A DNA stretch of 10,921 nt from the UHGV virus genome UHGV-0414405, one strand, 5' to 3'. The position numbers and the translations under genes were made by a program. The notes below the pieces were generated by a model. The model was not told where the DNA came from and did not search any database. It was given only the letters and a program-made list of their open reading frames with translations. Origin of the DNA: a virus. Shown piece after piece: positions 1 through 10,921 of this stretch; positions within the stretch are counted from its first letter, which is position 1; the number at the start of each line of letters is the position of its first letter.

Positions 1-200
1 AGGGACTGAATCAGACTAAAACGGAGTTTTTCCGCGACGGTATGCCGCGCAGGATTGAGTTCACCCTGTCGCTAAAACGCGTGGATGAATCCCTGTCCGA
101 TATGTTCGGTGATCTCAGTGCGCAACTGAATAATCTGCAGGGAACGGAAACATCTGCCTTAAGCGATATCAGTAAAACGGTGGGAGGGCTGCTGTCGTGA
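1..200 (+). CDS. U: Phage tail protein U (gpU-like), C-terminal fragment; 5' end lies outside the window
   Basis: Frame-3 reading frame is open from the window start to TGA at 198-200 (hand translation ...GLNQTKTEFFRDGMPRRIEFTLSLKRVDESLSDMFGDLSAQLNNLQGTETSALSDISKTVGGLLS*). The stop overlaps the GTG start of the next gene (GTGA). Assignment is by position immediately upstream of D and ogr, as in P2. Confidence 0.55.
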   Translation, partial: GLNQTKTEFFRDGMPRRIEFTLSLKRVDESLSDMFGDLSAQLNNLQGTETSALSDISKTVGGLLS

Positions 201-1297
201 ATTTCAGCTCTGAACTGCTTAACAAAGGCAACAAAACTCCGGCATTCAGCATCAGTATTGAAGGCAGGGATATCACCACTGTGCTGGACAACCGCCTGAT
301 GGGGCTGACGCTGACGGATAACCGGGGATTTGAAGCGGACCAGCTTGATCTGGAGCTGGACGACGCCGATGGAAAAATCGTGCTGCCGCGCCGTGGTGCG
401 GTCATTACGCTGGCGCTGGGCTGGAAGGGGCAGCCGCTTTTCCCGAAAGGGGCATTCACGGTGGACGAGATTGAACACACTGGCGCACCGGACCGCCTGA
501 CTATCCGGGCGCGAAGTGCTGATTTTCGGGAAACCCTGAATACCCGCCGTGAAAAATCGTGGCATAACACCACCATCGGGGAAGTGGTGAAGGAAATAGC
601 CGCGCGGCACAAGCTGAAGATGGCACTGGGTAAAGAGCTGTCGGATAAGCCCGTGGAGCATATAGACCAGACTAATGAGAGTGACGGCAGTTTTCTGATG
701 CGACTGGCGCGACAGTACGGTGCCATCGCGTCGGTGAAAAATGGCAATCTGTTATTCATCCGGCAGGGGCAGGGCAAAAGCGCCACTGGTAAACCACTGC
801 CAGTGATCACTATCACACGCAAGGACGGCGACAGTCACCGCTTTACCCTGGCAGATCGCGGAGCCTACACGGGCGTAATTGCCAGCTGGTTGCATACCCG
901 TGACCCTGCGAAGAAAGAAAGCACCACGGTGAAGCGTAAGCGCAGAACTAAGAAGCAGAAGAAAGAGCCGGAAGCGAAGCAGGGCGATTACCTGGTGGGT
1001 ACGGATGAAAACGTGCTGGTACTTAATCGCACTTATGCCAACCGGAGCAACGCCGAACGAGCGGCGAAAATGCAGTGGGAACGCCTGCAACGCGGCGTTG
1101 CGTCATTCTCGCTACAACTGGCGGAAGGGCGGGCAGATCTCTACACGGAAATGCCAGTGAAAGTCAGTGGCTTTAAACAGCCGATAGATGATGCGGAATG
1201 GACTATTACCACCCTGACGCATACTGTCAGCCCGGATAACGGTTTTACGACCAGTCTGGAGCTTGAAGTGAAGATTGATGATTTCGAAATGGAATGA
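197..1297 (+). CDS. D: Phage late control/tail protein D (gpD-like), 366 aa
   Basis: Long ORF with GTG start preceded by GGGAGGG (183-189). It sits between the U-like fragment and ogr, matching the P2 order U-D-ogr. Codon usage and GC match the phage backbone. Family call is by synteny and size, not a verified alignment. Confidence 0.8.
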   Translation: MNFSSELLNKGNKTPAFSISIEGRDITTVLDNRLMGLTLTDNRGFEADQLDLELDDADGKIVLPRRGAVITLALGWKGQPLFPKGAFTVDEIEHTGAPDRLTIRARSADFRETLNTRREKSWHNTTIGEVVKEIAARHKLKMALGKELSDKPVEHIDQTNESDGSFLMRLARQYGAIASVKNGNLLFIRQGQGKSATGKPLPVITITRKDGDSHRFTLADRGAYTGVIASWLHTRDPAKKESTTVKRKRRTKKQKKEPEAKQGDYLVGTDENVLVLNRTYANRSNAERAAKMQWERLQRGVASFSLQLAEGRADLYTEMPVKVSGFKQPIDDAEWTITTLTHTVSPDNGFTTSLELEVKIDDFEME

Positions 1298-1606: not shown

Positions 1607-1670
1607 ATGGCGACATAACTACATGATTTAAAACTATACTTTTCTATAAGTTGAGGTTAAATTAACAATG

Positions 1671-1847
1671 CCTGACGTTAGCGGGGATTTATCCCCACTC
1701 CGTAGATATGTAGTTTGTCGCTTTGCGACTGCGGACCGATTACCTGATTGCCATGTAATCGGACGCCGACTTGTTAAGCTTTCTGGGCTAACTGGTTGTT
1801 ATTTTTTATTTAGTTAGGGCCATGCGCTTGCGCTAAGAGACGTCAGG
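1671..1847 (+). ncRNA. Candidate retron-like structured ncRNA (msr/msd-like) upstream of the RT gene
   Basis: A non-coding stretch is bracketed by an interrupted inverted repeat: CCTGACGT-TAGCG (1671-1683) and CGCTA-agag-ACGTCAGG (1831-1847). It begins with TTAGCG, as in classical retron msr around the branching G. Local hairpins: GGGGAT/ATCCCC (1683-1696), GTCGC-ttt-GCGAC (1717-1729), CCGATTAC-11 nt-GTAATCGG (1736-1762). No long frame-1 or frame-3 ORF here. Exact ends and strand are inferred. Confidence 0.35.
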
Positions 1848-1867
1848 TATCTATGGAGGAACAAGTT

Positions 1868-2041
1868 ATGGATACAAACGAACTTGGCTTAGTTAAGGCG
1901 CGTGTTGAACTGATCACCGCTATGCTCAAATGCGCAACCGCGTTTGTTGGCTTAGTTGGTGCGGTTTACGCCGTTCTTAACATGGCCTTCAACTACAACA
2001 ATTTAACTCATGACAATAGAAGTTCAAAGGTGGGAAGATAA
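1868..2041 (+). CDS. Small hypothetical protein (57 aa) with one predicted hydrophobic helix; overlaps the RT start
   Basis: ATG at 1868 with GGAGGA (1855-1860) 7 nt upstream. Translation MDTNELGLVKARVELITAMLKCATAFVGLVGAVYAVLNMAFNYNNLTHDNRSSKVGR contains a ~17-residue hydrophobic segment. It overlaps the RT ORF by 32 nt in another frame. It could instead be the displaced N-terminus of a frameshifted RT, or non-coding RNA. Confidence 0.35.
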   Translation: MDTNELGLVKARVELITAMLKCATAFVGLVGAVYAVLNMAFNYNNLTHDNRSSKVGR

Positions 2042-2783
2042 ATTTGAGATTAAGCCCGGGGTTTGGGTTTATGTCCCAAGCGTTGAGGCACGTAAAGTCG
2101 GAGGGAAGATACTTCAGGCTGTCAGAAACAAGTGGATTCCGCCACTCTATTTTTACCATCTAAGAACTGGTGGGCATCTTAAAGCTGCCAGATTACACTT
2201 AAAAAGTGATTTTTTTGCCGTTGTTGATATTAAACAATTTTTTCAGTCAACGAGCCGTAGTCGTATCACCCGTGATCTAAAGAGCTACTTCACCTATTCT
2301 CAAGCGCGGGAAATCTCAACATTTTCAACTGTAAGAAACTTGTCCCATAGTCCACATAAGCATGTCCTCCCTTTTGGTTTTGTTCAATCTCCAATACTTG
2401 CAACCCTCTGCTTAGATAAAAGTTATTTTGGTAGCTTACTACGCCGATTGAACAAACATCATGATCTCAAGCTAAGTGTGTTTATGGATGATGTGATCAT
2501 CTCGTCAAACGATTTGGCCCAATTACAAGCGGCTTACGACGAAGCACTAGTGGCAATGCGTAAATCTGGTTATCAAGCCAACATGAGTAAAACTCAGGCA
2601 CCATCGTCAAAGATTAGCGTGTTTAATTTAACTTTGAGTAAGGGAGTTATGAAAGTCACATCTCAGAAAATGAGTGACTTCCTGATTGATTTCTATTCAA
2701 GCAATTATGAGCCGCACAGAATAGGGGTCAAAAACTACGTCGAAGCTGTTAATCCAGGGCAAGCGAAACTCTTTAAGTTGTAA
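2010..2783 (+). CDS. Reverse transcriptase, compact retron-like (257 aa)
   Basis: RT motifs in canonical order: motif A SDFFAVVDIKQFF (Asp at 2226-2228), motif B' LPFGFVQSP (from 2367), motif C FMDD (2481-2492), motif D/E QANMSKT, then KVTSQ where retron RTs carry VTG. An in-frame TAA at 2004-2006 fixes the start at ATG 2010, which has no obvious SD. GC is lower than in neighbouring phage genes. Confidence 0.8.
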   Translation: MTIEVQRWEDKFEIKPGVWVYVPSVEARKVGGKILQAVRNKWIPPLYFYHLRTGGHLKAARLHLKSDFFAVVDIKQFFQSTSRSRITRDLKSYFTYSQAREISTFSTVRNLSHSPHKHVLPFGFVQSPILATLCLDKSYFGSLLRRLNKHHDLKLSVFMDDVIISSNDLAQLQAAYDEALVAMRKSGYQANMSKTQAPSSKISVFNLTLSKGVMKVTSQKMSDFLIDFYSSNYEPHRIGVKNYVEAVNPGQAKLFKL

Positions 2784-2855: not shown

Positions 2856-2883
2856 AAGGGGCTACGCTTTCACGTAACCCCTT
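2856..2883. terminator. Bidirectional intrinsic terminator hairpin next to the ssrA-derived att core
   Basis: Stem AAGGGG(c)TACG / CGTA(a)CCCCTT (2856-2866 with 2873-2883), loop CTTTCA. T-rich tracts follow on both strands: GATTTATTT on + and TTTCTTTGG on the minus strand. On the minus strand it lies directly 3' of the tmRNA CCA end, so it likely doubles as the ssrA terminator after integration and as the RT-operon terminator. Confidence 0.5.
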
Positions 2884-2891
2884 GATTTATT

Positions 2892-2936
2892 TGGTGGAGC
2901 TGGCGGGAGTTGAACCCGCGTCCGAAATTCCTACAT
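2892..2936 (-). other. Phage attachment-site core: ~45-nt copy of the 3' end of ssrA (tmRNA)
   Basis: Reverse complement of 2892-2936 reads ATGTAGGAATTTCGGACGCGGGTTCAACTCCCGCCAGCTCCACCA, which matches my recollection of the 3' terminus (T-arm, acceptor, CCA) of enterobacterial tmRNA. The match ends abruptly at 2937. Only the 3' tail is present, flanked on both sides by phage genes. Confidence 0.6.
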
Positions 2937-2960
2937 ACCATTATTACTATAGCAAAAACA

Positions 2961-2988
2961 TTAACTTGCGTTTAAAATCAGCAAGTTA
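2961..2988 (-). terminator. Candidate intrinsic terminator for the int-membrane-protein transcript
   Basis: Inverted repeat TTAACTTGC (2961-2969) / GCAAGTTA (2981-2988) with an 11-nt loop, 34 nt downstream of the minus-strand ORF stop at 3022. On the minus strand it is followed by TGTTTTTGCT (reverse complement of 2951-2960). Confidence 0.45.
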
Positions 2989-3021
2989 GTATTATCTTGT
3001 GTTTGTCCGTTTTACTCATTT

Positions 3022-4068
3022 TTAATGCTCTGTCGCCAATCTGTCGCCATTGTAGGTCAACGAAGGTTGAGCCTTCCCTTTGTTTGTTACAATTTCATCA
3101 AAGATAGCTGGATTATTATCTTTCAGTAATCTTGCTAGTATAATGATTTGCCCAGACGAGCCATCATCCTTGAATGAAAGGAAATTATCGGTAATATCAA
3201 GAATATCAATGGTAAATTTGAAGTAGGTTTCAATTGTATCGCCAAGTTCAATGCTGGACATGAAGTTGGTAATCATTTCATATCCATCAAAGTATAAAGT
3301 TGCATGTTCATTTAACTCCATTGGAGTTAGGCAAAGCATTCGATTAAGTTCGGATAAGTGTTTTTCTATTGAATGAAGAGATTGCATTTGACGGATTAAA
3401 ACTTCGTCTAACTGAGAGCCACGATTAGATGAATGTATCTTCTCTAGGTTTTTTAGTATATCAACCCAGTGATTATTTACTTCACGTATGTATTCTTTAT
3501 CTGTATTTTTAGGCCGTCCCTTCTCTGGTGAGCTATTTATGAAAATATATCTATATAGATGTATTGGGTAGTTAATTTTATAACTTATCTCTTTAGTACC
3601 ATAATGACGTTCGCGTTTAATGGTTTTGTTAGGTAAATTGGTGAAATAATCAGTAACGAACTTTAGATGGCTATAGTAGCTATCAGATAGATTCTTTTGC
3701 TTGGTTTCCTCAATTTGTCGGTTTGTTTGAACTGTGCGGTGTATGTTTGCTACGACAGCAACAAATGGTATGGACAAAGAAAGTAAGGCGATAGGAAGCT
3801 TGCTAATTGCAATGAAATTATTAAAGCCCTCACTATCAAATTGAGGGGAGTGTCCAAGCCAGGAAAATATACCAAAGTATATCGCTGAAAATACAGGAAT
3901 CCTAAGTGATTGTTTAAATAAGTATTGACTTGTTAATGGCCTTTCATCCATGTTAAAGCCTTTTTTTGATACGCATAGATATAATTCAAGGCATATATAT
4001 ATAAAATATATTATGATAAGTAAGTACGATATCCATGGGTATTGTTGGATATAGTTATTAACAAGCAC
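3022..4068 (-). CDS. AT-rich hypothetical membrane protein (N-terminal TM helices plus ~230-aa soluble domain); accessory moron downstream of int
   Basis: Longest ORF begins at GTG 4068, overlapping the int stop by 11 nt (348 aa). The first in-frame ATG is at 3951-3949 (309 aa), preceded by AAAAAAAGG. Hydrophobic segments: IPVFSAIYFGIFSWLG and FIAISKLPIALLSLSIPFVAVVANI, plus WISYLLIIIYFIYICLELYLCV if the longer start is real. Strongly AT-rich relative to the backbone. No motif I can assign to a family. Confidence 0.55.
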   Translation of the reverse strand: MLVNNYIQQYPWISYLLIIIYFIYICLELYLCVSKKGFNMDERPLTSQYLFKQSLRIPVFSAIYFGIFSWLGHSPQFDSEGFNNFIAISKLPIALLSLSIPFVAVVANIHRTVQTNRQIEETKQKNLSDSYYSHLKFVTDYFTNLPNKTIKRERHYGTKEISYKINYPIHLYRYIFINSSPEKGRPKNTDKEYIREVNNHWVDILKNLEKIHSSNRGSQLDEVLIRQMQSLHSIEKHLSELNRMLCLTPMELNEHATLYFDGYEMITNFMSSIELGDTIETYFKFTIDILDITDNFLSFKDDGSSGQIIILARLLKDNNPAIFDEIVTNKGKAQPSLTYNGDRLATEH

Positions 4069-5098
4069 TTTCTAATTTTCTCCATCCAAGGTTAGCAAGA
4101 GGATTTTTGGTTACAGCATCTTCCAGATGGTCGGGAGCGAAGTGGGCGTAAATCATTGTCATTTTTATATCGACATGGCCCAGAATATCGCGCAGCACCA
4201 GTATGTTTCCGCCATTCATCATAAAGTGACTTGCAAATGTATGTCGTAATACGTGTGTGCATTGCCCTTCTGGTAGCTCGATACCAGCTCGTTTTACCGC
4301 ACGTTCAAAAGCTTTCCTACAAGGTGTAAATAATTTCCCCCTATTCTTAGGCAGTTCTTCATATAAATCCTTTGAAATAGGCACTGTTCGGTTTTTCTTT
4401 CCTTTAGTCTTGGTATAAGTGATACGGTATTTTGATACCTGATGACTCTGTAGGTTTTCGGCTTCGCTCCAGCGTGCGCCGGTGGCCAAGCATATTTTTG
4501 CAATCATCAGCAGACTGGGGCTTTGAGAATCAGCACAGGCATCCAGCAGACGTTTAATTTCTTCCGGGGTCAGGAACGCCAATTCACCCTCAGCAATTTT
4601 AAATGTTGGCAGCCCAGCAAGCGGGTTGGGGGCTGACCAGTGGCCCAGCTTTTTCAGTGTACCAAAAACAGATGATAGGTTGCGCTGTTCAAGATTTACC
4701 GTGCGGGGCTTAACGGGCGACATAAGCGTGCCATCTTCATTTCGTACTTCACCTTTTAACCGTGCTTCGCGGTATTTCGTAAACTCACCAGCTGTCAGTT
4801 CTGAGGCGATGGGATCGCCTAGACCATTACAGATAATTCTAAGTTTCGCCATGAGGCGCTTGGGGTCTGCGAGTGTTTGACCATACAGGGAATACCACAG
4901 CTCAATTAATTCTGATAGATGTCGCCGATCTTCCTTTTCCCCTAGCCATGGTTTTTTGTTCACTTCTTCCATTGTGAAGCTTTCAAACGCAATGGCTTCG
5001 CCTTTGGTAGCAAATTGCTTACGCACGCGCTTACCATTGCGTCCATTGGGATAGCACTCACACAACCATTTTCCGTTCGGCTGTTTTCTGATGGTCAT
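4058..5098 (-). CDS. int: Tyrosine site-specific integrase (P2/186-type), 346 aa
   Basis: C-terminal catalytic region CTHVLRHTFASHFMMNGGNILVLRDILGHVDIKMTMIYAH (H-x-x-R ... Y) plus upstream ATGARWSE (Arg box). ATG at 5098-5096 lies 3 nt after the cI stop, consistent with a cI-int operon. Located next to the att core. Confidence 0.92.
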   Translation of the reverse strand: MTIRKQPNGKWLCECYPNGRNGKRVRKQFATKGEAIAFESFTMEEVNKKPWLGEKEDRRHLSELIELWYSLYGQTLADPKRLMAKLRIICNGLGDPIASELTAGEFTKYREARLKGEVRNEDGTLMSPVKPRTVNLEQRNLSSVFGTLKKLGHWSAPNPLAGLPTFKIAEGELAFLTPEEIKRLLDACADSQSPSLLMIAKICLATGARWSEAENLQSHQVSKYRITYTKTKGKKNRTVPISKDLYEELPKNRGKLFTPCRKAFERAVKRAGIELPEGQCTHVLRHTFASHFMMNGGNILVLRDILGHVDIKMTMIYAHFAPDHLEDAVTKNPLANLGWRKLESAC

Positions 5099-5101
5099 AA
5101 G

Positions 5102-5734
5102 TTAGAGGTTCTTGATTACTTTGACTGCACGTCCTACGACTTCCACATCATCTACAGAACATTCAAATGAAGTGTCATCTTGGTTAACTACTATTTTGTT
5201 TCCGGGTATGCGCGCAATTTTGACGATGCTTTTAACTCCGTCCATATCGACTAACCAGAAGCCATTACTGACTTGTTTAACAGACGTATCCACTACAAAG
5301 CTATCATTAGCTGTTTTAACAAATAAAGCGTTGGATGAGTCACCATCGAGCAGGCTGCTATCAAGAAGAATTTCATCACTTGGCTGCAGTTCGCCGTTCT
5401 TCAGTTCAACACGTTTGATGCTAGGAGCAACGATCTTAGAAAGTGTTCTTACAGTGACGGGAGGTTCACTTTTGAGATTTGTTTCTTCGTTCTCACACGC
5501 ATACATATCTCCTTGACCAGTAGCCAGCCATAGAAGGGAAGCTCCTGTTTCAAGGGCACATTGGATTACCCATTCGGCAGGGAAGCTATCCCTTAAGTAT
5601 CTGTTAGCCATAGTGCTTTTTGATACTTCCAGATGTTCGCAGAGCTGCTGTCGTGAGCTGAAGTTGTAAGCCTTAATAAGCCTATTAATCGCATCGCGCC
5701 CACCACTATCATTCCCCGCCTTGATTAAACTCAT
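5102..5734 (-). CDS. cI: CI-type immunity repressor (HTH N-terminal domain, 186-CI-like architecture), 210 aa
   Basis: ATG at 5734-5732 is preceded by AAGAGG (reverse complement of 5742-5747). N-terminal HTH-like segment SRQQLCEHLEVSKSTMANRYLR. Divergent from the early operon and directly upstream of int. I see no S24 peptidase motif (no G-D-S-M ... K). Confidence 0.8.
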   Translation of the reverse strand: MSLIKAGNDSGGRDAINRLIKAYNFSSRQQLCEHLEVSKSTMANRYLRDSFPAEWVIQCALETGASLLWLATGQGDMYACENEETNLKSEPPVTVRTLSKIVAPSIKRVELKNGELQPSDEILLDSSLLDGDSSNALFVKTANDSFVVDTSVKQVSNGFWLVDMDGVKSIVKIARIPGNKIVVNQDDTSFECSVDDVEVVGRAVKVIKNL

Positions 5735-5745
5735 AATCAAACCTC

Positions 5746-5774
5746 TTGACGTATATAAAAAGTGATCCTAATAT
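5746..5774 (+). promoter_or_regulatory. Candidate early lytic promoter (pR-like), sigma70 type
   Basis: TTGACG (5746-5751), 17-bp spacer, TAATAT (5769-5774), reading toward the Cox/Apl-like gene. It overlaps the cI ribosome-binding region on the other strand. Confidence 0.5.
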
Positions 5775-5850
5775 CCATTCATGGTTTGAAAAGCAAAACC
5801 AAACCACATAAAACAAGATAAAACGAAACCAAACTAAGAGATACTGCACT

Positions 5851-6093
5851 ATGAGTACTGATATTTCAATTCGTGTACCTAAAGAGATGGCAACGCCTGC
5901 TGAGTTCGCGGAATGGGAAGGTATCTCCCGCGGCTCCGTGTATCAAAAAATTCACCATGGTCAGCTTGCTAAATACATGGTCAAGAAAGAAAAAAACAAA
6001 GGCCGCGTAAGCCTGCGTTATTTAATGTACAAAACCGATCAGGTCCGTGAATCCCTCGGTCATTCCAACTTCCGCGTCATTGTTGGTAAGTAA
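5851..6093 (+). CDS. apl: Cox/Apl-family excisionase and transcriptional regulator (80 aa)
   Basis: First gene of the rightward operon, divergent from cI. The segment PAEFAEWEGISRGSVYQKIHHGQLA resembles the P2 Cox HTH region (...EFAKLIGKSTGAVRRMIDKGKLP...) as I recall it. Size is typical. Confidence 0.6.
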   Translation: MSTDISIRVPKEMATPAEFAEWEGISRGSVYQKIHHGQLAKYMVKKEKNKGRVSLRYLMYKTDQVRESLGHSNFRVIVGK

Positions 6094-6125
6094 GTTCAAT
6101 TATGAGAACTTTCTAAGGGGCTAGC

Positions 6126-6635
6126 ATGTTTGATTATAAGATTTCCAAACACCCGCATTTTGATGAAGCCTGTAGAGCTTTTGCACTTCGTCACAATATG
6201 GCGAAGCTGGCAGAACGTGCAGGAATGAATGTCCAGACTTTGCGAAACAAACTCAACCCAGATCAACCGCATCAGCTAAATGCGCCAGAAATCTGGCTGC
6301 TTACCGATCTGACTGAAGATTCAACGCTGATAGATGGTTTTCTGGCACAGATTCACTGCCTGCCATGTGTACCGATTAATGAGGTAGCAAAAGAGAAACT
6401 GCCGCATTACGTCATGAGTGCAACCGCAGAGATCGGGCGTGTTGCTGCAGGTGCGGTATCTGGCGATGTAAAAACCAGTGCAGGTCGTCGTGATGCCATC
6501 AGCAGCATTAACTCTGTAACACGACTGATGGCGCTGGCTGCTGTTTCATTGCAGGCCCGTTTACAGGCTAACCCTGCGATGGCGAGTGCAGTTGATACCA
6601 TGACTGGCCTCGGTGCTTCATTCGGTTTGCTGTGA
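6126..6635 (+). CDS. cII: Phage 186 CII-like transcriptional activator (169 aa)
   Basis: ATG at 6126 is preceded by AAGGGG. Translation MFDYKISKHPHFDEACRAFALRHNMAKLAERAGMNVQTLRNKLNPDQPH... closely resembles my recollection of 186 CII in sequence, length and position (second gene of the early operon). Confidence 0.8.
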   Translation: MFDYKISKHPHFDEACRAFALRHNMAKLAERAGMNVQTLRNKLNPDQPHQLNAPEIWLLTDLTEDSTLIDGFLAQIHCLPCVPINEVAKEKLPHYVMSATAEIGRVAAGAVSGDVKTSAGRRDAISSINSVTRLMALAAVSLQARLQANPAMASAVDTMTGLGASFGLL

Positions 6636-6642
6636 GGTGCTT

Positions 6643-6843
6643 ATGCTGACGAAAGAACCATCATTTGCATCGCTGCTGGTAAAACAAAGCCCGGCAATGC
6701 ACTACGGTCACGGCTGGATAATGGGTAAGGATGGTAAACGCTGGCATCCGTGCCGTTCACAAGATGAATTGCTGGCAGAACTATCAACGAAAAAACGGGG
6801 GAACAAATGGCTATTGAAGGCGCTGCGGCGACTGTTCCATTAA
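6643..6843 (+). CDS. Small hypothetical early protein (66 aa), positional equivalent of the 186 fil / P2 orf78 slot
   Basis: ATG at 6643 is preceded by GAGGTG (6634-6639), just after the cII stop. The track ORF 6613..6843 starts at an upstream GTG without an RBS. Basic C-terminus. No recognisable motif. Confidence 0.4.
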   Translation: MLTKEPSFASLLVKQSPAMHYGHGWIMGKDGKRWHPCRSQDELLAELSTKKRGNKWLLKALRRLFH

Positions 6844-7148
6844 GCCCCGGTGAACGCCTGAATGGACTTAATCACATTGCGGAGTTAAGGGCGAAAGTAT
6901 TTGGCCTGAATATTGAGTCAGAGCTTGAGCGGTTTATTAAAGATATGCGTGATCCACGGGATATCAATAACGAAAAAAATAAACGAGCACTGGCTGCCAT
7001 ATTCTTTATGGCAAAAATTCCAGCTGAACGTCATAGCATCAGCATTAATGAGCTGACCACTGACGAAAAGCGGGAGTTGATTAAAGCAATGAATCATTTT
7101 CGTGCAGTGGTGAGCTTATTTCCCAGACGGCTAACCATGCCGAATTAA
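6807..7148 (+). CDS. Hypothetical early-operon protein (113 aa)
   Basis: ATG at 6807 is preceded by GGGGGA (6796-6802). Overlaps the previous ORF by 37 nt in another frame. Codon usage matches the backbone. No motif assigned. Confidence 0.5.
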   Translation: MAIEGAAATVPLSPGERLNGLNHIAELRAKVFGLNIESELERFIKDMRDPRDINNEKNKRALAAIFFMAKIPAERHSISINELTTDEKRELIKAMNHFRAVVSLFPRRLTMPN

Positions 7149-7215
7149 CCAACTAATGAAATTAATGGCGTAAACCCGCCGGGCATCCCTTTATCTAAAT
7201 TCAGGAGAATTGATT

Positions 7216-7449
7216 ATGCGTAATATTGAAACCCTCACGACTAAAACCGGACCGGATGATGCATGGCTTAATATTTTACTGACAGAGGCTCGTCTGGAAG
7301 AACGCCGGGCAAGGGCTGAAGCAATGGCAGCTCGCCTTGATAGCCTGGCGTGTCATATCTCATCCCGCCAGCTAAACCACGTCGAAGCAGCAGAACTGCT
7401 GCGTGTGACCGCTGAAGCAATCCAGAACGAAGCGCAGGAGATCCACTAA
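7216..7449 (+). CDS. Hypothetical early-operon protein (77 aa)
   Basis: ATG at 7216 is preceded by AGGAGA (7203-7208). The track start at 7210 is a TTG two codons upstream. Its stop overlaps the next start (TAATG at 7447-7451). Confidence 0.45.
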   Translation: MRNIETLTTKTGPDDAWLNILLTEARLEERRARAEAMAARLDSLACHISSRQLNHVEAAELLRVTAEAIQNEAQEIH

Positions 7450-7673
7450 TGGCTGATGCAATGGATCTCGTACAGCAGCGCGTTGAAGAAGAACGCCAGC
7501 GCCACATTGCTGCCCGTGCCAAAACACCAGGCGTGTCTCGCGTGCTTTGCATTGAGTGTGAAGCGCCAATTCCGCCAGCACGCCGCCGCGCCATTCCGGG
7601 AGTGCAGCTTTGCATTACCTGTCAGGAAATCGCAGAGCTGAAAGGTAAACATTACAACGGAGGCGCTGTATGA
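7449..7673 (+). CDS. TraR/DksA-family C4 zinc-finger protein (74 aa)
   Basis: Translation ...VLCIECEAPIPPARRRAIPGVQLCITCQE... has the C-x2-C-x17-C-x2-C pattern typical of phage TraR/DksA-like zinc fingers. Translationally coupled to the neighbours on both sides. Confidence 0.75.
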   Translation: MADAMDLVQQRVEEERQRHIAARAKTPGVSRVLCIECEAPIPPARRRAIPGVQLCITCQEIAELKGKHYNGGAV

Positions 7674-8527
7674 GCACCATCCTGAAATGGGCGGGTAATA
7701 AAACCGCCATTATGTCCGAACTGAAAAAACACCTTCCTGCTGGCCCGCGACTGGTTGAACCTTTCGCGGGTTCTTGTGCTGTGATGATGGAGACGGATTA
7801 CCCCAGCTATTTGGTTGCGGATATTAATCCTGATTTAATCAACCTCTATAAAAAGGTTGCCGCTGATTGTGAATCGTTTATATCTCGCGCCAGGGTTTTA
7901 TTTGAGATCGCAAACAGGGAGGTGGCTTATTACAACATAAGGCAGGAGTTTAATTACTCCACTGAAATTACTGATTTCATGAAAGCGGTATATTTCCTGT
8001 ATCTCAATCGTCACGGTTACCGTGGTTTATGTCGCTATAACAAGAGCGGGCATTTCAACATTCCCTACGGTAATTATAAAAATCCGTATTTCCCTGAAAA
8101 AGAACTTCGCACATTTGCAGAAAAAGCCCAGCGAGCAACGTTTGTCTGCGCCAGCTTTGATGAAACGCTGGCGATGTTGAAGGCGGGGGATGTGGTGTAT
8201 TGCGATCCGCCGTATGACGGTACGTTTTCCGGCTATCACACTGATGGTTTCACTGAAGATGACCAGTATCACCTGGCATCCGTTCTTGAACATCGGTCAT
8301 CAGAAGGACATCCGGTCATTGTTTCTAACAGTGACACATCCCTGATCCGTTCGCTGTATCGCAATTTTACTCACCACTACATCAAGGCAAAACGCAGCAT
8401 CGGCGTAGCAGCTGGTGAGAGTAAATCTGCAACAGAAATCATCGCTGTTTCCGGGCCGCGCTGCTGGGTGGGATTTGATCCTTCGCGTGGCGTGGATAGT
8501 TCTGCCGTGTACGGAGTGCGTGCATGA
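7670..8527 (+). CDS. dam: DNA N6-adenine methyltransferase, Dam family (285 aa)
   Basis: N-terminal KWAGNK motif, AdoMet-binding EPFAGSCAV (FxGxxG), and catalytic DPPY in [15 protein letters not shown] 7670 overlaps the upstream stop (ATGA) and is preceded by ACGGAGG. GATC specificity is inferred from the family. Confidence 0.9.
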
Positions 8528-10921
8528 GCCATGCTGATATGAACAACTGTAGCGGCTTTAACGAGGCCGCCGCAGCATTCTCATGGAACAGCCCGAAAAA
8601 GGCTATTAACCCTTATCTGGACCCGGCGGAAGTTGCGCCGGTTTCTGCGCTTTCAAACCTGATCACTCTGTACGCTGCCGATAACGAGCAGGAACAACTG
8701 CGCCGCGAGGCACTGAGTGATCAGGTCTGGGAGCGTTATTTCTTTAATGCATCCCGTGATCCTGTCCAACGCGAAATGGAGCAGGATAAGCTCATTAGCC
8801 GGGCAAAGCTGGCGCATGAGCAGCAGCGTTTTAATCCGGACATGGTCATACTGGCGGACGTTAACGCCCAGCCTTCCCATATCAGCAAGCCGCTGATGCA
8901 ACGTATTGAATACTTCAGCAGCCTGGGCAGGCCAAAGGCTTATTCCCGCTATTTGCGTGAGACGATTAAGCCATGTCTGGAACGACTGGAGCATGTACGC
9001 GACAGTCAGCTATCCACTTCTTTTCGCTTTATGGCAAGCCATGAAGGGCTGGACGGCCTGCTGATCTTGCCTGAAATGAGTCAGGATCAGGTGAAACGCC
9101 TGTCTACTCTTGTCGCTGCGCATATGAGTATGTGTCTTGATGCCGCTTGTGGTGATTTGTACGCCACCGATGATGTTAAGCCAGAAGAAATCCGCAAGAC
9201 ATGGGAAAAGGTGGCAGCAGAAACCCTGCGACTGGATGTCATACCGCCTGCGTTTGAGCAACTCCGCCGGAAAAGAAACCGCCGTAAACCCGTGCCCTAT
9301 GAACTCATTCCGGGTTCGCTGGCGCGTATGTTGTGCGCCGATTGGTGGTACCGTAAATTATGGAAGATGCGTTGCGAATGGCGGGAAGAGCAGTTGCGTG
9401 CTGTTTGCCTGGTCAGCAAAAAAGCATCTCCCTATGTCAGCTATGAAGCCGTGATGCATAAACGTGAGCAGCGCCGTAAGTCGCTGGAGTTTTTCCGTTC
9501 TCATGAACTGGTGAACGAAGACGGCGACACGCTGGACATGGAGGATGTGGTAAACGCCAGCAGCAGCAACCCTGCGCATCGCCGCAATGAGATGATGGCC
9601 TGTGTTAAAGGTCTGGAGCTTATCGCGGAAATGCGCGGTGACTGCGCCGTTTTCTACACCATCACCTGTCCGTCACGTTTCCATTCCACGCTAAATAACG
9701 GCAGGCCCAACCCGACCTGGACAAACGCGACGGTAAGACAAAGCAGTAATTATCTGGTCGGCATGTTTGCTGCATTTCGTAAGGCGATGCACAAAGCCGG
9801 GTTGCGCTGGTATGGCGTGCGGGTGGCTGAGCCGCATCATGACGGCACAGTTCACTGGCACCTGTTGTGTTTCATGCGCAAAAAAGACCGCCGCGCCATT
9901 ACTGCATTGTTGCGTAAGTTTGCTATCCGTGAAGACCGCGAGGAGCTGGGTAATAACACGGGGCCACGCTTTAAGTCTGAGCTGATAAACCCGTGCAAAG
10001 GAACGCCGACTAGCTACATCGCGAAATACATCAGTAAGAACATTGACGGGCGTGGTCTGGCTGGCGAGATCAGCAAGGAAACGGGTAAATCTCTGCGTGA
10101 TAACGCTGAATACGTTAATGCCTGGGCGTCTCTGCATCGTGTTCAGCAATTCCGCTTCTTTGGCATTCCGGGGCGTCAGGCTTACCGTGAACTGCGATTG
10201 CTGGCTGGTCAGGTGGCAAGGCTACAGGGTGACAAAAAAGCAGGTGCGCCGGTACTGGATAACCCGCGCCTTGATGCCATTCTGGCTGCAGCTGATGCTG
10301 GTTGTTTTGCCACCTACATCATGAAGCAGGGCGGCGTACTGGTTCCCCGTAAATATCACCTCATCAGAACCGCTTATGAAATCAACGAAGAGCCGACCGC
10401 CTATGGCGATCACGGCATTCGTATTTATGGCATCTGGTCACCCATTGCAGAGGGCAAAATCTGCACTCATGCAGTGAAGTGGAAAATGGTTCGTAAGGCC
10501 GTTGACGTTCAGGAGGCGGCAGCCGACCAGGGCGCTTGCGCCCCTTGGACTCGTGGCAATAACTATCCCCTTGCTGAAAATTTGAACCAACAAGGGAAAG
10601 ATAAATCAGCTGATGGGGATACCAGGACGGACATTACCCGCATGGATGACAAGGAGTTGCACGATTACCTGCACAGTATGAGCAAAAAAGAGCGCCGGGA
10701 ACTGGCTGCAAGGTTACGCCTGGTGAAACCGAAACGGCGTAAAGACTACAAACAGCGAATTACAGACCATCAGCGACAGCAGCTCGTCTATGAACTGAAG
10801 TCAAGAGGATTTGATGGCAGCGAGAAAGAGGTCGATCTGCTCCTTCGCGGTGGCAGTATTCCGTCAGGAGCAGGCCTGCGTATCTTCTATCGGAACCAGC
10901 GTTTGCAGGAAGATGATAAGT
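8524..10921 (+). CDS. A: Replication initiation protein A (gpA-like rolling-circle nickase), 3' end outside the window
   Basis: ATG 8524 overlaps the dam stop (ATGA). Frame 1 is open for 799 codons to the window end (hand translation, no stop found). Contains a HUH-type motif [10 protein letters not shown] (~9850-9880) and a Tyr-x3-Tyr active-site-like motif [10 protein letters not shown] (~10010-10040), as in P2 A. Confidence 0.9.

Follow-up and report, generated by a model that had tools for sequence, protein, structure and literature searches.

A membrane-protein gene between the integrase gene and the attachment site of a 186/P2-type phage: cargo of a large uncharacterised family with a possible role in anti-phage defence

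The gene between int and the attachment site

We analysed a 10,921-nucleotide (nt) stretch of viral DNA (UHGV virus genome UHGV-0414405), referred to below as the window. It represents the early/late junction of a 186/P2-type temperate phage in the attP (phage attachment site) configuration, and the subject of this work is the open reading frame (ORF) that lies on its minus strand between the integrase gene int and the attP core (Table 1). The ORF is a real gene under purifying selection. It is open over 348 codons, and a stretch of this length would be stop-free by chance with a probability of about 1e-11 at its own base composition. Compared with the 88%-identical copy of Escherichia coli A41, the ratio of nonsynonymous to synonymous substitution (dN/dS) is 0.17 overall, 0.023 in codons 40-146 and 0.21 in codons 147-348, while codons 2-39 are under weak constraint with a value of 0.66 that derives from just 11 differences. 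An earlier reading of the window made from its letters and open reading frames (the sequence-only reading) had named a broken frame in close relatives as a finding that would speak against its interpretation; among 5,426 complete E. coli genomes the ORF is present in 14 and its frame is intact in every one of them. The same reading had described the gene as far more AT-rich than the phage backbone, which agrees with a GC content of 0.340 (0.315 at third codon positions) vs 0.469 for the window, 0.46 for int and 0.55 for gpD.

The limits of the attP core were fixed to 45 base pairs (bp) by a three-way comparison with both E. coli prophage junctions, those of SCU-115 and MINF_1D. The comparison shows that this attachment (att) site is real. 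The junctions begin at the core, and hence the ORF is located inside the element at a distance of 85 nt from the core. Furthermore, close relatives differ in the content of the slot between int and the core. The slot has no gene in SEN8, holds in Cartapus a protein annotated as RES-domain in its record (no Pfam or PADLOC match was found here) and is occupied in Klebsiella phage ST437-OXA245phi4.1 by a gene for a 516-amino-acid (aa) hypothetical protein, also lacking a Pfam or PADLOC match (locus L010, 1661-3211), and in E. coli SCU-115 by a gene for a 412-aa hypothetical protein (locus L027, 3199-4437). The 412-aa and 516-aa genes start 7 nt past the int stop or overlap int by 4 nt. Our data thus support the view, held already by the sequence-only reading, that the ORF is a moron placed between int and att, i.e. 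a horizontally acquired accessory cargo gene of 186/P2-type temperate phages. The int-att interval is a minor defence hotspot of P2-like prophages, with 3% of P2 systems (PMC13586616), and the interval between portal/ogr and GpA (GpQ-GpA) is the main one (PMC13586616; PMC9122126).

Table 1. Features of the window and segments of the ORF, with positions counted from the first letter of the window.
Feature	Position	Strand	Description
gpD	197-1297	+	GC 0.55
ogr	1355-1606	+
Retron-like module	1607-2783	+	in the ogr-att slot
ssrA-type intrinsic terminator, phage-borne	2856-2883	-	12-bp stem followed by a T-run
attP core	2892-2936		45 bp, identical to the 3' end of ssrA (transfer-messenger RNA, tmRNA), as its reverse complement on the + strand
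ORF, long form	3022-4068	-	348 aa; GTG start, TAA stop at 3022-3024
ORF, short form	3022-3951	-	309 aa from ATG 3951; would have two transmembrane (TM) helices
C-terminal alpha/beta domain, residues 147-348	3025-3630	-	predicted cytoplasmic; hypervariable
Conserved core, residues 40-146	3631-3951	-	cytoplasmic loop, TM2 (55-72), periplasmic loop, TM3 (88-108), juxtamembrane stalk helix
TM1, residues 12-34, variable N-terminal extension	3967-4035	-	from hydropathy and AlphaFold2; mean column conservation 0.27
int	4058-5098	-	phage-186-type tyrosine integrase; Pfam Int_N and Phage_integrase; GC 0.46
CI repressor gene	5102-5740	-	186 type; Pfam Phage_CI_repr and Phage_CI_C

Architecture and family of the encoded protein

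Kyte-Doolittle hydropathy and AlphaFold2 concur on three membrane helices at residues ~12-34, 55-72 and 88-108, in keeping with the two or three N-terminal TM helices of the sequence-only reading. By hydropathy the signal is strong at residues 12-34 and 85-108 and weaker at 55-72. AlphaFold2 places helices at 12-34, 49-70 and 90-143, the last of them continuous: the third membrane helix continues up to residue 143 as a long stalk helix, after which comes an alpha/beta domain. The model has a mean predicted local distance difference test score (pLDDT) of 81.7 at full length; modelled alone, residues 109-348 reach a pLDDT of 86.7 and a predicted template modelling score (pTM) of 0.83. Lysine and arginine counts in 58 diverse family members average 3.4 in the TM1-TM2 loop, 1.0 in the TM2-TM3 loop and 3.6 after TM3, and by the positive-inside rule this distribution places the C-terminal domain in the cytoplasm. 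We therefore infer an inner-membrane protein with its N-terminus outside and its C-terminal ~240 aa cytoplasmic. The description of the soluble part as a domain with no placeable motif also stands, since this roughly 240-aa region has no match in Pfam or NCBIfam. Foldseek comparison of the model with BFVD gave no significant match and a sequence-profile search of the PDB returned designed coiled coils only; the modelled C-terminal fold thus appears to lack a solved counterpart, as far as the PDB is compared by sequence profile.

The gene belongs to a large unnamed and uncharacterised family, as judged from sequence searches. The 29 clusters of a first search were without exception enterobacterial and carried the label 'hypothetical'. 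When 1.84 billion representatives were searched with a profile, the threshold E <= 1e-3 gave 958 clusters (at 50% identity) and the threshold E <= 1e-10 gave 432, and a second profile search in a database of 5.8 billion again returned 'hypothetical' proteins only, with no Pfam domains. Over its full length the ORF product matches PHROG 17460 (E 5.4e-156, residues 4-332 aligned with positions 2-343 of the 343 in the profile) and belongs to it; this group is without assigned function, so that membership does not inform on mechanism. The profile searches ended in this PHROG and in no characterised relative, and the literature likewise yielded no characterised homologue. Pfam and NCBIfam scans of the ORF product were without match; Pfam, NCBIfam and PADLOC scans of 29 and of 58 family members gave no consistent match, those in NCBIfam being noise only, and no Pfam domain was found in the ten members whose C-terminal part extends beyond the match to the family profile. 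The matches in PADLOC were weak and sporadic: to the two-TM (2TM) effectors of CBASS (E 2e-4) and of type IV retrons (E 4.4e-5), and to KwaA. The 2TM profiles (PDLC00691, PDLC00695 and PDLC02912) were matched by three of the 29 and by two to three of the 58 members, with E values from 2e-4 to 4e-5.

Conservation within the family is modular. Among the 58 diverse members L45, P58, H110, Q114, D129, K136 and Y172 are invariant, and Q48, F51, W70, G81, F85, P92, L96, R111, T112, T115, Q118, I119, K125, N126 and H134 nearly so. The conserved unit comprises TM2, a short periplasmic loop, TM3 and the first ~30 residues of the stalk, which opens at the interface of membrane and cytoplasm with the contiguous motif N-x-H-R-T-I-Q-T; the stalk residues concerned are N108-x-H110-R-T-I-Q-T115, Q118, I119, K125, N126, D129, H134 and K136. 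In this core 99% of pairs are mutually detectable by BLAST with a median identity of 48%, and in the C-terminal domain 8.8% of pairs with a median identity of 29.5%. The C-terminal domain is homologous across most of the family yet hyper-divergent. Ahead of the conserved core, distant relatives carry one or two TM helices.

Genomic context, translation start and expression

The surroundings of homologues were compared in 80 IMG/VR loci, a sample biased to 186-like phages through the search pattern used, with homologues of 27-99% identity. The automatic classes were corrected by hand where the longest ORF ran back into int or off the contig. In 72 of the 80 loci a 186-type int, 55-100% identical to that of the window, is located directly upstream on the same strand (CI-int-X, where X is the homologue; CI identity down to 35%), which is the outcome of the integrase survey that the sequence-only reading had called for. 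The order is CI, homologue, int (CI-X-int) in five loci, one locus has an insertion between int and a truncated copy, and in the remaining two the contig ends too near for classification. The homologue hence lies within the lysogeny operon in 77 of the 80 loci. The same arrangement is also kept in homologues of 38-44% identity, and the distance from the upstream stop to the start of the longest ORF is between -23 and +30 nt in 68 of the 70 loci in which it was measured, consistent with the proposed overlap or coupling of the start with int.

Other lineages carry the family in other slots. In P2-like prophages of Providencia homologues lie in the GpQ-GpA slot between portal/ogr and GpA. The Budvicia homologue occupies the ogr-att slot, and that of Xenorhabdus neighbours a lambda-type int/xis, with which it is convergent. 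In addition, the last gene of Vibrio cyclitrophicus phage 10N.286.55.F1_PE001, a tectivirus-like prophage element of the Vinavirales, is a homologue that starts 1 nt past the stop of a gene with the record note LexA/Signal_peptidase (locus L019, 4230-5957). Read as a repressor gene, the latter would mean that the arrangement of repressor followed by homologue recurs in a different viral realm. Among 72,556 plasmid records one has a homologue, which is partial, and that record is itself a phage-like element; the family thus seems confined to phages in the surveyed data. The neighbours in the contexts that lack a 186-type CI-int pair (Pseudomonas, the spoT-yicC region and Xenorhabdus) were uninformative on function.

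Several loci show further rearrangement. In locus L033 (3664-5145; IMG/VR UViG_2513237219_000007) ~1.4 kb that may be an insertion sequence element or a newly inserted cargo gene separates int from an N-terminally truncated copy. Tandem paralogues of 348 and 365 aa, overlapping by 4 nt, lie between portal/ogr and gpA in Providencia (locus L023, 3958-6098; Logan SRR8591527), with a GC content of 0.26-0.28 vs 0.39 for the locus, and in loci L025 and L026 an unrelated 259-aa gene replaces the first paralogue. In Citrobacter sp. FP75 the homologue and the ssrA core are separated by a further ORF of 397 aa (locus L012, 7099-8292) that had no match in Pfam or PADLOC and might represent either additional cargo or a partner gene.

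Both start codons considered by the sequence-only reading are present. With the GTG start at 4066-4068, 11 nt past a GGAG, the gene shares its first 11 nt with the end of int, and ATG 3949-3951 is preceded by AAAAAAAGG-N7. The overlap (4058-4068) exists because the C-terminus of int is slightly extended compared with the A41 copy, the TAA that ends int there being AAA in the window. PGAP annotates the 309-aa form in three E. coli RefSeq genomes and thereby omits TM1, and gene callers other than PGAP give 348 aa. In favour of the long form, all homologues down to 38% identity have kept their N-terminal extension open and hydrophobic, with a Glu that is nearly invariant. Distant relatives have ATG as the long start and no Met counterpart of M40, and the longest-ORF distances given above also favour this form. 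In favour of the short form are the near-invariance of M40 within the close subfamily, the weak constraint on codons 2-39 and a Budvicia relative that is naturally 2TM. On these comparative grounds translation is likely to begin at GTG 4068, use of both starts being possible, and NCBI annotation may thus place the gene start 39 codons too late.

The sequence-only reading had also seen a promoter-like AT-rich spacer before ATG 3951, and here it did not hold up. A consensus scan found no site between 4068 and 3951; the sole nearby promoter-like match (3936-3909) is downstream of this ATG, and the region has fewer such sites (5) than shuffled sequence (8.5 +/- 2.9). A promoter of its own for the short form thus has no support from the consensus scan. 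Moreover, neither a promoter-like nor a terminator-like site was found in the intervals between int and the ORF and between the ORF and the core. Downstream of the ORF, on the same strand, the terminator-like site met first in the attP form is the ssrA-type terminator (2883-2856), which would end a transcript of CI, int and the ORF, CI being the presumed first gene of this lysogenic operon. In lysogens of phage 186 and P2 the repressor and int are co-transcribed, and by analogy the ORF should therefore be expressed in the lysogen from the repressor promoter.

Proposed function and rival explanations

An exclusion or abortive-infection function is suggested by architecture and position alone, and we lean towards an anti-phage role of some kind. 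The points that we count in its favour are the position in the lysogeny operon, the occurrence in other cargo slots, the restriction to phages, the modular conservation, the predicted cytoplasmic domain and the weak matches to 2TM effectors; TM proteins of known defence systems are generally taken as suicide effectors (PMC9122126). As a specific form of this role we tentatively propose, from sequence, a lysogen-expressed single-protein anti-phage factor in which sensor and abortive effector are combined. In the lysogen the CI-int operon would be transcribed with the ORF as its last cistron, and translation of the ORF would be coupled to that of int. The fast-evolving cytoplasmic domain would recognise a component or an activity of an incoming heterologous phage, and the signal would pass via the invariant juxtamembrane stalk (N-x-HRTIQT..QI..KN..D....H.K) to the 2TM core. 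The core would then oligomerise or open, the membrane integrity or proton-motive force would collapse and the infection would abort. Its net effect would make such a protein the functional counterpart, in one chain, of lambda RexA/RexB. A bolder and more speculative form of the proposal takes the ORF product as a possible founding member of a large phage-confined family (~1,000 clusters at 50% identity) whose members would each act against phages as one polypeptide. The invariant 2TM-stalk module would be a regulated effector that disrupts the membrane, the hypervariable cytoplasmic domain, for whose fold no solved counterpart was seen, would be the sensor that sets specificity, and the protein would be wired into the repressor/integrase operon of temperate phages in at least two viral realms.

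Several points weigh against this interpretation. The PADLOC matches are few and confined to the TM segments and may reflect composition alone, Pfam gave no SLATT match in the 58 members, and sequence comparison revealed no significant similarity to any characterised defence protein. Residence in a hotspot is circumstantial, as such slots also hold genes unlinked to defence, and the Pseudomonas and spoT-yicC contexts are not obviously of phage origin. The predicted topology, furthermore, follows from the positive-inside rule alone. Finally, there is a small chance that a block to superinfection takes the place of an abortive mechanism.

Comparison with known systems places the proposal more precisely. 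In phage lambda RexA senses in the cytoplasm and RexB, a protein of four TM helices, depolarises the membrane so that infection aborts, both being encoded in the cI-rexA-rexB operon. The likeness lies in the location in a repressor operon (CI-int-X and CI-X-int with minimal gaps, and the Vibrio element) and in the membrane component. In contrast to the two Rex proteins, the ORF product is one chain with two or three TM helices, and the parallel is offered as a functional analogy: the Pfam, PADLOC and NCBIfam scans gave no match to Rex families, and no similarity to RexA or RexB in sequence or fold was detected. With the 2TM (SLATT-like) effectors of CBASS, Pycsar and type IV retrons the ORF product shares two TM helices followed by a long helix and the sporadic PADLOC matches. 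These effectors are partnered with a cyclase or reverse transcriptase (RT) that makes the signal, whereas the ORF product stands alone with its own 240-aa cytoplasmic domain; an operonic partner of this kind was not seen, int or CI being the upstream gene in the 77 lysogeny-operon loci. The genomic logic is that of the cargo genes old, tin and fun(Z) of P2 and of the cI-int hotspot of K139-like vibriophages (PMC9122126; PMC13586616). The slot of Old and Tin (GpQ-GpA) holds homologues of the ORF in Providencia, and elsewhere these occupy the CI-X-int and int-att positions. The P2 cargo proteins themselves belong to unrelated families, and Old and Tin are cytoplasmic. By analogy, then, the ORF product would be functionally most like Rex-type or 2TM-effector systems while being a member of neither, and it belongs among the cargo genes of P2/186 hotspots.

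Two explanations other than an abortive sensor-effector deserve weight, and both seem unlikely to us. The first is superinfection exclusion, in which the protein would block the entry of an incoming genome at the cytoplasmic membrane and the cell would not be killed, as known for SieA of P22, Imm of T4 and gp15 of HK97. Operon, cargo slot and phage restriction fit this equally, the ORF product is a predicted inner-membrane protein as these are, its protection of the carrier cell being the proposal here, and the TM2-loop-TM3 core with its invariant Pro, Gly and Trp could contact a conserved entry component of host or phage. However, the large variable domain is predicted on the cytoplasmic side, the wrong one for the ejection apparatus, and the topology as predicted does not point to a block of DNA entry. 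The known exclusion proteins are small, with no large domain in the cytoplasm, and no homology to them was found. The second is a function in lysogenic conversion or host fitness outside defence, for instance in envelope physiology, stress tolerance or colonisation. Many morons expressed from lysogenic promoters are unrelated to defence, the sequence points to no specific biochemical activity, and the carriers are clinical and commensal Enterobacteriaceae. The hypervariable C-terminal domain on an invariant core nevertheless fits an arms race between viruses better, and tandem divergent paralogues in the P2 defence hotspot as well as the near-absence from plasmids also speak against a fitness function.

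We consider it improbable that the ORF product regulates the phage's own life cycle as a membrane sensor that tunes induction, integration/excision or the timing of lysis. Such a role would explain why the gene stays beside CI and int, to which it is linked in the 77 IMG/VR loci, but the bias of that sample has to be taken into account, the complete relatives SEN8 and Cartapus have no such gene (their slot is empty or holds an unrelated gene) and the family is also found in the GpQ-GpA and ogr-side slots. The location in the lysogeny operon and the length of 348 aa do not fit a holin or lysis protein, and of the two possible starts the internal Met is lacking in distant homologues.

Lysogen-expressed membrane morons of prophages that are presumed to be defensive are a familiar kind of gene, and uncharacterised cargo in prophage hotspots is no longer surprising; the protein family as such is unstudied. 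Should the anti-phage interpretation be true, a widespread defence family would lie outside PADLOC 2023, Pfam 2025, NCBIfam 2026 and the PHROGs, its design of a conserved membrane effector with a swappable sensor would suit domain-swap work on specificity and triggering, and very different temperate viruses would share, in the last cistron of the CI-int operon, a slot dedicated to cargo expressed in the lysogen. Should it be wrong, the ORF would be one further conserved prophage gene with no assigned function.

Across the attP core from the ORF lies a retron-like module. Its RT gene (2010-2783, plus strand) encodes 257 aa with the RT of type VI retrons as the best profile match (6.6e-18). The spacer before it is structured (fold z-score -2.96) and flanked by an 11-nt inverted repeat (1668-1678 and 1840-1850), and a hydrophobic ORF of 62 aa (1853-2041) overlaps the RT start. 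Type VI retrons consist of a small toxic protein (SP), a helix-turn-helix (HTH) protein and an RT (bioRxiv 10.64898/2026.04.27.721009; 10.1101/2025.10.22.683967); the cassette resembles this layout in its small hydrophobic ORF and RT, and no HTH gene was seen in it. Among 5,426 complete E. coli genomes 33 carry the cassette, in each case next to ssrA on the ogr side. The sequence-only reading was right in regarding the two genes as convergent across the att core and in doubting a classical retron operon. RT and ORF form two cargo modules independent of each other, one on either side of attP, because their E. coli genomes are disjoint (none of the 30 RT genomes listed, out of 33, is among the 14 carriers of the ORF), the RT lies within 5 kb of the homologue in 0 of the 80 IMG/VR loci and the RT-bearing SCU-115 prophage has the different 412-aa gene behind int. 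That the ORF could still be the membrane effector of the RT, as a split retron joined across attP, is hardly credible and effectively refuted by co-occurrence and orientation: the adjacency of the two in the window and the match of one family member to the type IV retron 2TM profile stand against convergent genes, where retron effectors are co-oriented and co-transcribed with their RT, an intervening att core, opposite ends of the prophage in the lysogen, the disjoint distribution just given, the small hydrophobic ORF and structured RNA that the RT has of its own in type VI-like fashion, and window halves that match different prophages.

As to these halves, the best matches of positions 1-2889 are the Klebsiella prophage Kp4845-2 and similar records, and that of positions 2890-10921 is Kp4865-2, so that the window is either a tandem-prophage junction at ssrA or a recombinant or virion-form genome. 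Beyond CI follow apl and cII, named from annotated relatives, and at a greater distance a Dam methylase gene. Along the reading direction of ssrA, the lysogen has in turn the ssrA body, the core, the phage-borne terminator, RT, ogr and D, and, at the other end, CI, int, the ORF, the core and the bacterial flank. The phage carries a copy of the 3' end of ssrA and its own terminator (in the region 2784-2891), and integration thus restores a complete tmRNA gene. In Kosakonia pseudosacchari (locus L011, 7348-9651) the ssrA locus is an array of mobile elements, in which a truncated int and a family member are followed by an ssrA remnant and, just past it, by a homologue of PifA (PADLOC 1e-261, KAP NTPase).

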